NCBI GenBank assembly: GCA_964594835.1
Contig: CAZQNA010000007.1
Coordinates: forward strand, 52,058-116,057
Direction of reading: 5' to 3'
DNA length: 64,000 nucleotides
Source of the DNA: an uncultured Nitrososphaerota archaeon
GTDB lineage: Archaea > Korarchaeota > Korarchaeia > Korarchaeales > Korarchaeaceae
Every line of letters starts with the position of its first letter. The stretch's first letter is position 1. Of the stretch, positions 41,752 through 53,712 are shown piece after piece. The notes under the pieces are model-generated. The model was not told where the DNA came from. It was given only the letters and a program-made list of their open reading frames with translations, and did no database searches. The position numbers and the translations under genes are program-made.

Positions 41752-41770
41752 AGTAACGGAAAGGTTTATA
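41752..41770 (+). promoter_or_regulatory. Imperfect operator overlapping BRE/TATA of the heat-shock regulator
   Basis: AGTAACGGAAAGGTTTAT overlaps TTTATA (41765-41770). Confidence 0.55.
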
Positions 41771-41797
41771 GTCCGCGTGGGCGACTCTCAGACCGGA

Positions 41798-42298
41798 ATG
41801 GCTGGGGACTATGCCCTGAGGGACCTCCTGGAAATCATGAAGCTTTTGTCTAGCGAGACCAGGCTGAGGATACTGGAGATACTCTCGGAGGAGCCGGTCT
41901 ACCTGGAGGAGCTGGCTAGGCAGATGGAGATGACGAGGCAGGCTGTGCTGAAGCACCTGGAGGCCCTCTCTCAGCTGGGCATAGTCTCCCCGCTGAGAGA
42001 GCAGAGGGGTCCGAGGGGGCCTCCAAGGACGTTCTACGTGCTCAACAGGTCCCTCCACCTGTCGGTCCACGTCGGGAGGGGGGGCGTCCTGCTGCGAACC
42101 GCATCCCCAGCCATGCCCGATAGGGTCTCCCTAGACTCCCTCAAGAGGCTGGTGGAGGAGGGCGAATCTCTGGTTGAGAGAGACCCGGATGCCGCCCTGA
42201 AGCTCACGGATCAGGCTCTCCGAGAGCTCTCGGACCTGGAGTCATACGTCCTCTGGCTCAGGGAGCGGGCAGCTCGGCGGAAGGTTTATATATGGTAG
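41798..42298 (+). CDS. ArsR-like wHTH heat-shock regulator (HSR1/Phr-like)
   Basis: TRLRILEIL, MTRQAVLKHL, GPPRTFY; precedes hsp20-cdc48; ATG 41798 sits ~27 nt after TATA (alternative GTG 41777). Confidence 0.85.
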   Translation: MAGDYALRDLLEIMKLLSSETRLRILEILSEEPVYLEELARQMEMTRQAVLKHLEALSQLGIVSPLREQRGPRGPPRTFYVLNRSLHLSVHVGRGGVLLRTASPAMPDRVSLDSLKRLVEEGESLVERDPDAALKLTDQALRELSDLESYVLWLRERAARRKVYIW

Positions 42299-42316
42299 AG
42301 TAACCAAAAGGTTACT
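42281..42316 (+). promoter_or_regulatory. hsp20 promoter (TTTATATA) with perfect palindrome AGTAACC-AAAA-GGTTACT
   Basis: TATA at 42285-42292; inverted repeat at 42299-42316 over the expected start site. Confidence 0.75.
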
Positions 42317-42338
42317 ATGGACGCACCGACGGAGGGGG

Positions 42339-42848
42339 GTGATAGGGGTGTACTGGAGCAGGTGGTTCCGGAGGATAATGGAGGACCTCGAGAGGGAGTT
42401 TGAGAGGTTCGAGATGGAGCTTGACAGGATGTTCAGCTCCGTCGGCAGGGGGCGCGGCGAGGTCATTGGGCCGTACGTCTACGGGTTCAGCGTCACCATC
42501 GGACCCGAAGGCATTCCGGTGGTCAGGACCTTCGGAAACGTTCCCAGGGCCGAGGAGGGGTACAGGACCCCGTTCGTCGACGTGATAGTCGACGAGAAGG
42601 CGAATCAGGTCAGGGTGATAGCCGAGCTGCCCGGGGTCAGCAAGGAGGACATCGACATAGACGCCACCGAGCGCAGCGTGGAGATCAGGGCCGAGCGGGG
42701 GGACAGGAAGTACAGAGCCGTCGTGGACCTGCCGATAGAGGTCGACGTCAACAGCGCCAGGGCCAGCTACAACAACGGCGTCCTGGAGATAACGTTCAAG
42801 CCGAGGCGCGAGGTCAGGCCGAGGGGCACCAAGATCAGGGTGGAGTGA
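42339..42848 (+). CDS. hsp20: Archaeal small heat shock protein Hsp20
   Basis: GPYVYGFSVTIGPEG, AELPGVSKEDI, ASYNNGVLEI. Confidence 0.95.
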   Translation: MIGVYWSRWFRRIMEDLEREFERFEMELDRMFSSVGRGRGEVIGPYVYGFSVTIGPEGIPVVRTFGNVPRAEEGYRTPFVDVIVDEKANQVRVIAELPGVSKEDIDIDATERSVEIRAERGDRKYRAVVDLPIEVDVNSARASYNNGVLEITFKPRREVRPRGTKIRVE

Positions 42849-42868
42849 GCCCCCTCCCCACCTTTTTA
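42849..42868 (+). terminator. Putative pyrimidine/oligo-T terminator after hsp20
   Basis: C-rich tract followed by TTTTT immediately after the stop codon. Confidence 0.4.
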
Positions 42869-50131: not shown

Positions 50132-50174
50132 CTGCCCATGGGGATTCGACCCGCCCCCCGCCGTCCAGAGTGCG

Positions 50175-52313
50175 CTACCTCCTCCCGAGCTTTGCGCTCA
50201 TCGATAGCGCCCTAGCAGAGTTGAACTCCTCAATCGCGGCCAGGAAGTGCCTCATTGCGACTTGATCCACGCCTCTGTTCTCTCTGAGGGCTATGAGCCC
50301 AGCCTCCACGCATATCGCCCTGAGGTCCGCCCCCGTGCAGCCCTCGGTCCTCCTCGCCAGCTCCCTCAGGTCGACGCCGTCGGCCAGAGGCATGCTCCGG
50401 GTGTGTATCTTCAGGATCTCCAGCCTGGCTTCCTCGTCCGGAGGGGGCACGTAGACCAGCCTGTCGAACCTGCCCGGCCTGAGCAGGGCCGGGTCCAGCA
50501 GGTCGGGCCTGTTCGTCGCGGCTATCACGACGACGCCCTTCAGCTCCTCTATGCCGTCCAGCTCCGTGAGGAGCTGAGCTACCACCCTCTCCGTCACCCT
50601 GGAACTCTCAGAGAGCGACCTCCTCGGGGCCAGCGCGTCTATCTCGTCGAAGAATATCACGCACGGAGCGGCCTGCCTGGCCTTCCTGAACACCTCCCTG
50701 ACGGCCTTCTCGCTCTCACCGACCCACTTGCTCAGAAGCTCCGGTCCCTTGACCGAGATGAAGTTGGCCTCGCTCTCTCTGGCTGCCGCCTTGGCTAGGA
50801 GGGTCTTTCCACATCCGGGTGGACCGTAGAGGAGGATCCCCTTGGGCGGAGATATCCCGAGCCTCTCAAAGGTCTCTGGCTTCCTGAGCGGGAGCTCCAC
50901 CATCTCCCTTAGCTTCTGTATGACATCCTTGAGCCCTCCCACGTCGCTCCAGCCGACCTTCGGGGTCTCCGCCGTTATCCCCCTGGCCGCGGAGGGCTCC
51001 ACCCTCTTCAGGGCCCGCTCGAAGTCGCGCATCCTCACCACCACGTTGGGGGGACTGCCGCCCCTCCCGGACTTCTCCTCCCTGAGGGCCCTGCTCACGG
51101 CCTCGGCCAGGGCCTCCCGGCACAGGGCAGCCAGGTCGGCGCCCACGAAGCCCTGGGTCAACCGCGCCACCCTCCCCAGGTTCAGCTCCACCGCCAGGTC
51201 CGCGGACCCGCACCTGCTGCAGACCTTCGCCCGCCCCCCCAGGGTGGCCCCGCAGGCCCTGCACCTGACGACCCTGAACTCGTCGGAGAGGGGCATCTTC
51301 CGGGTCAGCACCCTCAGTATCTCCTCCCTCTCGGCCATCCCCGGCACTCCTATCTCCACCACGAAGTCCAGCCTACCGGCCCTGGTGAGGTATCTCGGCA
51401 CCTTGGAGACGTCGGTGGCCGTCGCCACCACTAGGACCCTATCGCCGTCGGTCAGACCGTCAAGCAGGCTGGACAGGAGGGAGCACACCTCCTCCCCCAG
51501 CCTGTCCACGTCATCCACCAGGATGGCCCTCAGCCCGTCCCCGGCGGCCGCCTCGAACACGGCCCTGAGCTTCTCCTCGACCTCCCGCCCGCCGCTCCTG
51601 ACTAGGTCGCTCCCCCTCACCTCGAAGAAGGAGTCGGCTCCCGCCTCCCCGATCAGGGCCCTGGCCAGGAGCGTCTTGCCGCAGCCCGGGGGTCCGTGTA
51701 TCAGCACGCCCCTGGGCGGGGAGACCCCGAACCTCCCGTAGAGGGACCCATCTCTGAGCGGGGCGACGATCCTCTCGAGCAGGTCCCTCTTCTGCTGCCC
51801 CAGGCCACCCACGTCCTTGAAGGTCACCTGGGGGCGCCCTCCTCCCCCCTCCGCGGAGAACTCCGTCTTGGCTGTGACGACCACAGGCCCCCTGGGGAAC
51901 GTCCTGACGACCTCGGCCTCGACCACCCTGCCGCCGACCGAGACTCGCACCCTGTTTCCCTCCACCAGGGCGTGGCCGCGCAGCCTCCTCCCCAGAGCGT
52001 GCAGGTCCCTCAGCCTAGAGGCCTCCTTCGACAGGACCACCATCACCGCGTCGGAGGGTCTGACGGCCCTCAGCGCGACCAGCTCCCCGGGCCTGACACC
52101 GACGTTGGAGATCGTGATCCTGTCCAGGTCCACGGTCGGGGACCTCGCGGAGCTGTCGAGGAGGACGGCGGCGACCGCCCTGCCCCGCCCCACTATCTCG
52201 ACGTAGTCCCCCGGCCCAACCCCGAGGCGCCTCGCGGTCCCGCAGTCGACCCTGGCGACCCCCCTGCCGGAGAGGTCGGGTGGGAGCAGCCCCACCCTGG
52301 CCGAGACGGGCAA
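50175..52313 (-). CDS. Divergent Cdc48-family AAA+ ATPase (degenerate D1, Zn-ribbon insertion)
   Basis: Cdc48 N domain (GRGVARVD); D1 GPPGCGKT with Walker B ILVDDVD; CRAC..CSRC insert; intact D2. Confidence 0.88.
50458..50576 (-). repeat. 119-bp inverted copy of 44691-44809
   Basis: Identical including all synonymous positions. Confidence 0.9.
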
Positions 52314-52329
52314 GCGAACCCCCCGCCCG

Positions 52330-53610
52330 CTACTCGCCCTCGGCCTCGTACTCCTCGACGGTGGCTGGGGCCTTCTGCCTCAGTACCTCGACCTCCCTCT
52401 CGATCTGCTTCAGCTCCTCCAGTATCTCCTCCGGGATGTCCAGCTCCTCCAGGACCTCCTCCTCAGAGCCCAGCACCTCTCTCTCAAGCTCTTCGATCTC
52501 CCTGTACTCCTCCTCCAGGTACTTCCTGGTCTTCGCTATGAACGCCTCGACGTCCTCTCCCCTCTCGACGAGGGACGGGACGGACTCCGCTATCTTGATC
52601 TTGAGCTCCAGGTCCTTTATCAGCCGCTCTATCTTCTCCACCTTTATGTCCTGGGCTAGGAGCTCGACCTTGTAGTTCCTGACCTCCCTCAGGAAGTCCT
52701 CGTGGCTCGATATCTCCTGCTCCAGGGTCCTCTTGCTCTTCATCAGCTGTATCTCCCTGTCCCTGACAAGCGCGGCCTCCCTCAGCTTGCCGGCCTCCAC
52801 GAGGGACTGCCTCTCCGCCTCAAGAGACCTGAGCTGCCTGACTATTCTCCTTATCTCAGCCTCCAGCTCCTTTATCCTGGACTCCGCCCCCCGGGCTATC
52901 TTCAGCTTCTCCCTGTAGGCCTCCTCCATGATCTCCCGCTTCTTCCTCTCCCTCTCCAGGAACCTCAGAGCCTTCAGCCTCATCACCCTGAGCTCGTTGA
53001 GCTTGTCCTGCCTCGCCAGCTCCTTGAAGACGTAGACGGGCTCGCCATCCTCGACGTACTCCTCGACGACCCCCATGGAGACGAGCTCCCGCAGGGCTTC
53101 CTTGACGGCCGTCGGAGGGAGCCCCAGGATTCTGGCCATCTCAACCTCCCTGACTATCCCCACGGGCTTGACCTTCTCGGCCACGTTCATTATCCTCAGG
53201 GCGATTGTCCCCTTCGGAGCTTCCTCCTCGTACTTCGAGAAGTGCTCCACCAGGACCTCGGCCTCGGTCACGGTGTAGTTGAAGAGCCTGGCCAGGGCCT
53301 CTGGGTCCCTGCTCTCCGGCCTCTTGAGCCACGTGACGACCTCGTCCGGGATGAACTCGGGGAAAACGTAGTAGGTGACGCCCCTCCTCTTGTATATGCG
53401 GCAGTTCCAGTGCTCCGAGAAGTAGGAGAGGACCTGCTCTGCCTCCTGCTTCGAGTGGGCCTCCTCCCCAAAGGTCTTCTCGGACTCCTGCAGGAAGGTC
53501 GGGACAGAGGCCACCCCCCTCCTCCTCTCCAGGTACACCCGGAAGAAGGGCTCCTCCTCATCCACGTCGATCGAGGGGGCCCCGCCACCAGACAGGAACC
53601 TCCAGACCAA
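52330..53610 (-). CDS. Winged-helix + PspA/ESCRT-III-like coiled-coil protein
   Basis: Two wH-like units (..[41 protein letters not shown]), a long helical hairpin ([13 protein letters not shown]) and an acidic terminal helix ([14 protein letters not shown]). Confidence 0.6.
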
Positions 53611-53624
53611 CCTCCTCCCCTCAT

Positions 53625-53712
53625 GTAAACTATATGGTAGACAGAAATATTCAGACTCTCCACCACTATCTACCGGGATTACTCTTAATTCTACGTAAAC
53701 TCTAAGGTTGAT
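53625..53712 (-). promoter_or_regulatory. Two operator copies upstream of the wH-PspA-like gene
   Basis: GTAAACT-ATAT-GGTAGAC at 53625-53642 and GTAAACT-CTAA-GGTTGAT at 53695-53712. Confidence 0.6.

Follow-up and report, generated by a model that had tools for sequence, protein, structure and literature searches.

Two classes of candidate palindromic operators at a Phr-like heat-shock operon and an adjoining accessory module of an uncultured korarchaeal archaeon

Do the palindromes in the promoters of an archaeal heat-shock operon and of the accessory gene module beside it belong to one operator family, and do both gene sets thereby form one regulon? The question is raised by a 64,000-nt stretch of DNA (the window; contig CAZQNA010000007.1, positions 52,058 to 116,057) from the assembly of an uncultured korarchaeal archaeon (GCA_964594835.1; 1,818,972 bp, 65 % G+C; labelled G000 here). 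A preliminary description of the window had listed six 18-mers in promoter regions and read them as a single palindromic family, AAC[C/T]-N4-GGTT, serving two paralogous and possibly cross-talking winged helix-turn-helix (wHTH) autorepressors, reg1 of the heat-shock operon and reg2 of the module. Our analysis points to a different arrangement, which we regard as probable while allowing it considerable room for error: the six sites would comprise two operator classes, A (sites 1 and 2) and B (sites 3, 5 and 6), together with a core promoter (site 4). The heat-shock part is a further case of the Phr/HSR1 kind, and the regulator and operator of the module are new, of an ordinary type.

Four members of the genus were compared (G000, G001, G003 and G004), along with G028, which belongs to the same class as G000 and to another order, and the metagenome contig L037; G004 and L037 are close kin of G000. 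TATA boxes and start sites are predicted throughout. TATA boxes were assigned by their distance to start codons, and three apparently leaderless genes of this region, in which the TATA starts 31-33 nt ahead of the ATG, served as the yardstick. The A/T-rich background consists of 52,950 nt with a local G+C content of 0.50 or less.

Sorting of the six promoter sites

All six 18-mers occur letter for letter at the coordinates quoted for them, upstream of genes and in non-coding DNA. The consensus put forward for them describes sites 2, 3 and 6 and fails at site 1, which has AACG, at site 4, which ends in GTTT, and at site 5, which ends in GGTA. In its original form (AACYNNNNGGTT) the motif has 37 copies on both strands of the whole genome, and AACC-N4-GGTT has 11, sites 2 and 3 among them. 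Within the 11,961-nt span the count is three where 0.24 would be expected (Poisson P ~0.002), an enrichment that is modest for the motif as defined. The cluster is therefore real, though the six sites are not one motif.

An AAC-N6-GTT core is common to five of the six sites. The bases next to the core divide the sites into two motif classes: the half-sites read GTAAC in the heat-shock operon and TCAAC in the module, two versions conserved separately, each across a genome set of its own, which tells against a single operator family joining the operon to the module. The overlap of sites 1 and 4 with the TATA boxes of regulator genes was described correctly (AAGGTTTATA at reg1, AGTTTTAA at reg2), as were the peptides MTRQAVLKH and VTRQAVHKA of the two regulators, and candidate operators do lie at the promoters of both regulators themselves.

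The reg1 gene and the class A sites

Site 2 (42299-42316, plus strand) is a perfect 7+4+7 palindrome, AGTAACC-AAAA-GGTTACT. It begins 7 nt past the hsp20 TATA box (TTTATATA, 42285-42292); relative to the predicted start site, it runs from about -16 to +1. The exact dyad GTAAC-N6-GTTAC has two copies in the 1.82 Mb of the genome, of which site 2 is one. Its arms are invariant and its 4-nt spacer varies (AAAA, ATTC, ATCC, TATT) in all four genus members, and a count over its seven pairs gives no compensatory change and one disruptive arm change, in G001. This conservation fits a protein-binding site and lends no support to an RNA stem. Beyond the genus, gene order is kept from reg1 to hsp20 in 14 loci, and an inverted repeat follows the hsp20 TATA in 11 of them. 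In the three loci lacking a scored repeat (L010, L011 and L013), a TTAAC..GGATAAT-type string was seen by eye, as in their relatives. One locus (L016) carries CTAAC-CTTTA-GTTAG after the hsp20 TATA, which fits the HSR1 motif as given in a review (PMC9133787).

Site 1 (41749-41769, plus strand) is built differently. Its half-site CATAGTAAC (41749-41757) matches, on the opposite strand, the right arm of site 2 with its flank, and this 9-mer has exactly two copies in the G000 genome, at sites 1 and 2. Copies stand at both promoters in the other genus members as well, accounting for two of two copies in G001, two of five in G004 and two of six in G003. At site 1 the 9-mer is unchanged in 4/4 genus members and the flank upstream of it diverges. 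The half-site adjoins and overlaps the transcription factor B recognition element (BRE) and TATA box of reg1, AAGGTTTATA (41761-41770), which makes up the other half of the site 1 18-mer and is likewise confined in G000 to the reg1 and hsp20 promoters; the TTTATA within it starts 33 nt ahead of the in-frame reg1 ATG at 41798. Scored as a dyad, site 1 has two mismatches to GTAAC-N6-GTTAC. On the other side lies a GNAT acetyltransferase gene (40858-41709, minus strand; Pfam and open reading frame (ORF) list). The string CCTAAAACC (41724-41732) is TATA-like on the minus strand, about 31 nt ahead of the GNAT ATG, and site 1 therefore stands between two divergent core promoters. This string is kept in three of the four genus members, G003 having a TATA-like string in its place.

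The regulator gene itself, reg1 (41798-42298, plus strand; 166 aa; Pfam and ORF list), is inferred to be leaderless, starting at the ATG of 41798. Its Pfam match is HTH_20 (1.5e-11), and its best match among solved structures is 2p4w, Phr of Pyrococcus furiosus (phmmer E 4.9e-12, residues 10-90). The top NCBIfam model is Phr_regulator (E 2.7e-13), whose cut-off of 320 bits, set for a narrow model of the 'exception' type, is not reached by the 49.9 bits of reg1; with a score so far under the cut-off, reg1 is therefore a distant relative and no equivalog. In the AlphaFold (AF2) model (pLDDT 76.5), helices at residues 112-125 and 130-162 follow the wHTH domain. Foldseek ranked 2p4w first (E 2e-8, 157 columns, TM 0.53, ~24 % identity), the large rmsd being attributed to domain orientation, and the modelled architecture, a wHTH followed by a C-terminal helical (dimerisation) domain, is that of Phr.

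Downstream of reg1 lie hsp20 (42339-42848, plus strand; Pfam HSP20) and a gene for a cdc48/VAT-type AAA+ ATPase (42945-45203, plus strand; Pfam CDC48_N, CDC48_2 and two AAA domains), in the order reg1-hsp20-cdc48, and both are likely targets of reg1. We propose that a reg1 dimer binds GTAACC-N4-GGTTAC between the TATA and the start site of hsp20 and that the bound protein would block RNA polymerase, as has been described for Phr, until heat releases it. Repression would thus extend to hsp20 and probably to cdc48 too. In the reg1 promoter itself, binding to the strong half-site CATAGTAAC would bring the second monomer onto the BRE/TATA, with autoregulation as the result.

Several further observations concern this operon. 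The end of the reg1 reading frame (K V Y I W, stop; 42281-42298) doubles as the BRE/TATA of hsp20, AAGGTTTATATATGGTAG, and is kept in 4/4 genus members. No conserved palindrome of the reg1 type lies between hsp20 and cdc48, where the conserved stretch is the Shine-Dalgarno region. A class B match with two mismatches ahead of cdc48, at 42921, was rejected, since its spacing changes in relatives. The only other exact GTAAC-N6-GTTAC of the genome is a perfect palindrome, GGTAAC-ATTTCT-GTTACC, on contig C24 (1251-1268), outside the window. It has a TATA-like stretch on one side and, on the other, the ATG of a gene on the minus strand with weak matches to the AbiEi antitoxin models AbiEi_4 (E 8.6e-4) and AbiEi_1 (E 0.009), both below the cut-off.

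The accessory module, reg2 and the class B sites

The module occupies 8.6 kb (45204-53899) between cdc48 and a THUMP gene (53900-54436, plus strand; Pfam and ORF list) and holds five genes in two convergent arms. On the plus strand are reg2 (45444-45803; 119 aa) and two genes for DUF4350/GldG-like proteins, a (45793-47532; 579 aa) and b (47525-50131; 868 aa), with Pfam matches to DUF4350 and ABC_transp_aux; the three genes are apparently co-transcribed. On the minus strand are genes for a Cdc48-like ATPase (50175-52313; Pfam and NCBIfam CDC48) and a 426-aa orphan protein with a weak wHTH signal (HTH_24) and a coiled coil (52330-53610).

Class B is defined by the dyad TCAAC-N6-GTTGA, to which sites 3, 6 and 5 have zero, one and two mismatches, respectively. 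Site 3 (45353-45370, plus strand; GTCAAC-CTATTG-GTTGAT) is a distal site, at about -90 to -73 of the predicted reg2 start site. Nearly the same geometry recurs at the promoter of the 426-aa gene: relative to the predicted start, distal site 6 (53695-53712; minus-strand ATCAAC-CTTAGA-GTTTAC) covers about -91 to -74. The proximal site of that promoter, site 5 (53625-53642; minus-strand GTCTAC-CATATA-GTTTAC), follows the TATA-like AATATTTC and precedes the predicted start site; spanning about -21 to -4, it occupies the position that site 2 has at hsp20.

Counts indicate that these dyads are concentrated in the module. Genome-wide, TCAAC-N6-GTTGA has 4 exact, 57 one-mismatch, 791 two-mismatch and 5,666 three-mismatch matches; the A/T-rich background has 1, 5, 26 and 205, and site 3 is the sole exact copy in the A/T-rich DNA of the genome. 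The window has four matches at one mismatch or fewer against 0.69 expected, a number reached in 0/100 shuffles, and two of the four fall in G+C-rich coding DNA. For the 529 non-coding nt of the module, the probability of at least two sites at one mismatch or fewer is 7.8e-4 and that of three sites at two mismatches or fewer is 3.3e-3. G028 has four exact dyads in ~1.7 Mb, three of them within the 329-nt spacer between its reg2 and 426-aa genes (P ~3e-11) and the fourth inside a 266-aa open frame. Three exact copies away from the module were inspected, two on contig C6 of G004 and this fourth copy of G028, on contig C185, and all lie within long open frames.

The same dyad emerged from an enumeration of every perfect dyad with 5-nt arms and a gap of 0-12 nt in nine non-coding regions (seven module or reg2 regions from five loci and the regions upstream of reg1 and hsp20). 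TCAAC-6-GTTGA was the only one with three copies or more, having five copies in three genomes. Site 3 is conserved in G004 and aligns in register with site A of G028. Site 6 aligns with its counterparts in G004 and L037 and with the perfect site B of G028 (invariant CAAC...GTT.AC), and site 5 does so with those in G004 and L037 and with the perfect site C of G028 (invariant TGTC.AC...GTT.A). The centre-to-centre distance between sites 5 and 6 is 70 nt in G000, 69 in G004, 69 in L037 and 68 in G028. Given the shared operator type and the linkage in G028, the two arms of the module therefore probably form one regulon, a part of the preliminary proposal that we retain, and the controller of both is most likely reg2.

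We suggest that reg2 recognises TCAAC-N6-GTTGA and would occupy the distal site 3, at about -82, in its own promoter, and both the distal site 6 and the proximal site 5, over the start-site region, at the promoter of the 426-aa and Cdc48-like genes. Both arms would then belong to one regulon, with repression exerted at the proximal site. An A/T-rich block directly downstream of site 6 (53673-53694, minus strand; TAGAATTAAGAGTAAT) is near-invariant in G000, G004 and L037, and its equivalent in G028 reads TAGTTTTAAG; the block may represent either an extended operator or a further TATA box.

Site 4 (45401-45418, plus strand) stands apart. It coincides with the reg2 BRE/TATA (AACAGTTTTAA), overlaps AGTTTTAA, and has three mismatches to the class B dyad; the TTTTAA starts 31 nt ahead of the reg2 ATG at 45444. 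Matches this loose occur about once per 223 nt of the A/T-rich DNA of the genome, so that ~2.4 are expected in the 529 non-coding nt of the module. The site is kept only in the close relative G004, G028 having AAAC-A-TTTTA there, with other spacing. Site 4 is probably the core promoter of reg2; as a dyad it is no better than chance, and a role as operator appears unlikely.

The reg2 protein (ORF list) belongs to a small family, with nine clusters among 5.8 billion proteins and members in 4/43 genomes of the phylum (E of 1e-8 or better). The string RQA[V/I]xKAC of its recognition helix is invariant in 10/10 aligned members. All Pfam matches fall below the cut-off (MarR_2, 24.3 bits vs 27; HVO_A0261_N; HTH_Crp_2), neither HTH_5 nor HTH_20 of Pfam reaches its gathering score, and NCBIfam gives only weak CmtR and HTH_metalloreg matches. 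The structure model (pLDDT 87.6) has helices at residues 10-22, 30-38, 45-52 and 60-72, a wing at 76-90 and a helix at 92-115, in agreement with a winged-helix fold with flanking helices of the sort used for dimerisation in ArsR/SmtB types. The folds nearest to the model are dimeric HxlR, MarR and ArsR-SmtB regulators, Phr coming only at rank 31.

The supposed paralogy of reg1 and reg2 is weak. Their wHTH domains are homologous by profile (hhalign 95.5 %, E 1.4e-8, 61 columns, 26 % identity), and the pairwise similarity is weak (BLASTP E 0.029 over 19 residues). The TRQAV string is found in 4/12 aligned members of the Phr-like family, all of this genus. The common AAC-N6-GTT core may reflect similar reading heads, with flanking specificity bases that differ and are conserved separately. 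Cross-talk between the regulators is conceivable, but nothing in the analysis favors it.

The module is rare. It lies at the same place in G004 as in G000. In G001, the heat-shock operon and its operator are present and cdc48 is followed directly by the THUMP gene; because this genome lacks the module yet keeps the heat-shock operator, the link of the module to the heat-shock operon, the other half of the single regulon proposed earlier, is unsupported. Relative to G001, of the same genus, the module is an insertion or a deletion. In G028, the reg2-DUF4350 genes diverge from the pair encoding the 426-aa and Cdc48-like proteins, and no heat-shock family was found among the six neighbouring ORFs scanned. 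The order of reg2 and genes a and b is kept in G004 and G018, and G028 keeps reg2 and gene a up to the contig end, with weak matches to protein b within that ORF. The pair of 426-aa and Cdc48-like genes is kept in G004, G028 and L037. The 426-aa protein, found in 3/41 relatives, is a near-orphan: at E<1e-10, a single representative of its family turned up among 1.84 billion. Scans of genome contigs and metagenome contigs with its alignment gave two loci each, G004 and G028 again and additionally the close contig L037. Viral contigs scanned with reg2 gave no locus, and no informative terminal repeats were found around the module.

Additional features were noted in and near the module. By eye, the Cdc48-like ATPase has a zinc-ribbon-like insertion (CxxC...CxxC) between its two AAA domains, and the 868-aa DUF4350 protein has a hydrophobic, signal-like N-terminus and a hydrophobic helix near residues 575-597, which suggests that it is membrane-anchored with parts on both sides. 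Between cdc48 and reg2, G004 (locus L030, contig C13, 9818-10669) is ~600 nt longer than G000 (45204-45443). A short stretch, gagttcaacgtcgtct, is common to this gap in both genomes and may be a remnant of a lost gene. In G000 as a whole, the 7-mers with the highest enrichment in A/T-rich islands, such as ATCTCTG, CCCTCAG, GAAGCAA and GATTGAA, overlap mutually and seem to belong to a single repeat family located elsewhere in the genome, possibly a CRISPR repeat. A search of these islands for a promoter consensus by k-mer enrichment was swamped by this family and was dropped.

Weighing of alternatives and comparison with known systems

A number of points weigh against the division into two operator classes and a core promoter. 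Neither site 1 taken as a dyad nor site 5, each with two mismatches, is significant on sequence alone. The second exact GTAAC-N6-GTTAC lies at an unrelated AbiEi-like gene, and heat-shock genes are therefore not alone in carrying the class A dyad. For class B, independent support comes mainly from one distant genome, G028. G018, which has reg2, contains no exact dyad, and the 208 nt ahead of its reg2 gene hold just two hexamers (GTCAAC/GTTGAC). The A/T-rich mask and the dyad definitions were of our own choosing and partly post hoc, as are the P-values in part. Lastly, the 426-aa protein has a weak wHTH signal of its own (residues 157-186; HTH_24, E 8e-4) and so could be the binder of class B. 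That this protein reads the class B dyads, alone or with reg2, is doubtful in our judgment, although it is the least improbable of the alternatives. It is encoded in every genome with perfect or near-perfect dyads (G000, G004, L037 and G028), and no exact dyad occurs in G018, in which no copy of it turned up; the G018 genome, however, is only 71 % complete, with a contig that ends early. Against the 426-aa protein as binder, its wHTH match lies under the Pfam threshold, reg2 is a small first operon gene with an upstream dyad, the usual layout of an autoregulator, and the recognition helix of reg2 is invariant in all ten aligned family members.

The original proposal, one AAC-N6-GTT family read by two cross-talking paralogous autorepressors in a single heat-shock regulon that includes both module arms, now appears unlikely. 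It accommodates the core common to five sites, the TRQAV at the start of the recognition helix in both proteins, the alignment of their wHTH profiles, and the position of the module, which adjoins the heat-shock operon in G000 and G004 and carries a second Cdc48-like ATPase. It does not accommodate the separately conserved flanking bases, the absence of any class A dyad at two mismatches or fewer from the module promoters, the loss of spacing at 42921 (the sole class B match at two mismatches or fewer near the heat-shock promoters), the G001 heat-shock system without the module, the G028 module without a heat-shock neighbour in the ORFs scanned, or a TRQAV string that is no family trait of the Phr-like protein. 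A bolder variant carries about as little weight with us: the module would be a self-contained, horizontally mobile unit of stress or envelope proteostasis, built of two DUF4350 proteins that are secreted or membrane-bound, a Cdc48-like unfoldase of its own and a coiled-coil orphan serving as adaptor, and reg2 would descend from the wHTH stock that also gave Phr. Since the AAC-N6-GTT core persists in the reg2 dyad, each regulator would in part recognise the sites of the other once the module had landed next to the Phr operon, and the accessory unfoldase system would thereby be wired into the heat-shock response. With distal sites placed identically, at -82, in the two module promoters, reg2 would act as both activator and repressor. 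As a general account, a chance likeness among A/T-rich promoters is very improbable. It holds for site 4, with the ~2.4 equally loose matches expected, and may hold for site 5 if only its letters are considered, but counts reject it for sites 2, 3 and 6, and shuffles, genome-wide counts and conservation across genomes oppose it for sites 1, 2, 3 and 6. Even less credible is a role of the palindromes as RNA hairpins (leader structure, thermometer or terminator) instead of protein-binding DNA. A stem of 6 or 7 bp could form at site 2 and likewise at site 3, but the pairs of site 2 show no compensation, this site lies mostly upstream of the predicted start site and leaves the Shine-Dalgarno stretch uncovered, no T-run follows site 2 or site 3, and Rfam (E-value mode) gave 0 matches in 41000-55000.

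With two operator classes and a core promoter as the favored reading, the locus can be set beside described systems. In the excerpts of PMC9133787 and PMC10653856 on which we draw, Phr and HSR1 are the only archaeal heat-shock regulators described, both from Euryarchaeota. Phr binds a 29-bp site that overlaps the start site and blocks recruitment of RNA polymerase (PMC9133787, in the part excerpted); its published operator elements are TTTA, TGGTAA and AAAA. HSR1 of Archaeoglobus fulgidus has the operator CTAAC-N5-GTTAG, is encoded in an operon with hsp20 and is autoregulatory, according to the same portions of PMC9133787 and PMC10653856. In this lineage and 13 related loci, a Phr-like gene stands beside hsp20, with a palindrome after the hsp20 TATA in 11/14. 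If the 'Thermoproteota' label of two of the relatives holds, the Phr paradigm reaches past the model organisms and would offer for comparison a series of regulator/operator pairs that differ between genera.

Like Phr of Pyrococcus furiosus, whose regulon comprises hsp20, an AAA+ ATPase and phr itself, reg1 is linked to hsp20 and a Cdc48/VAT-type ATPase, and it has the same order of wHTH N-domain and C-terminal helical domain. The candidate operator over the predicted start-site region past the hsp20 TATA also agrees with the excerpted account of Phr, and the half-site at the reg1 promoter, with its two mismatches as a dyad, may do so. The systems differ in that the three genes here form one cluster and, by the same account, in that the dyad is GTAAC-N6-GTTAC, without the TTTA, TGGTAA and AAAA elements, and that reg1 has in its promoter a half-site placed on the BRE/TATA, whereas the corresponding Phr site lies downstream of the TATA. 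HSR1, compared through the excerpted descriptions of its operon and operator, resembles reg1 as the first gene of an operon with hsp20 and in a candidate palindrome with a TAAC/GTTA core; the spacer between the 5-mers is 6 nt in this genus and 5 nt for HSR1.

The class B system would be a first handle on the orphan module, with a regulator and an operator that join its five genes into one testable unit. Its closest likeness is to ArsR/SmtB, HxlR and MarR regulators: the reg2 model matches 1z7u and ArsR, HlyU, CzrA and SmtB chains (TM 0.6-0.7), and the protein is small and has a long helix at its C-terminus, with a palindromic candidate operator ahead of the reg2 gene. Unlike these regulators, reg2 belongs to no Pfam family at threshold, shows no recognised ligand or metal site and has a family of only nine clusters, and the promoters add a distal site at about -82 to the proximal one.

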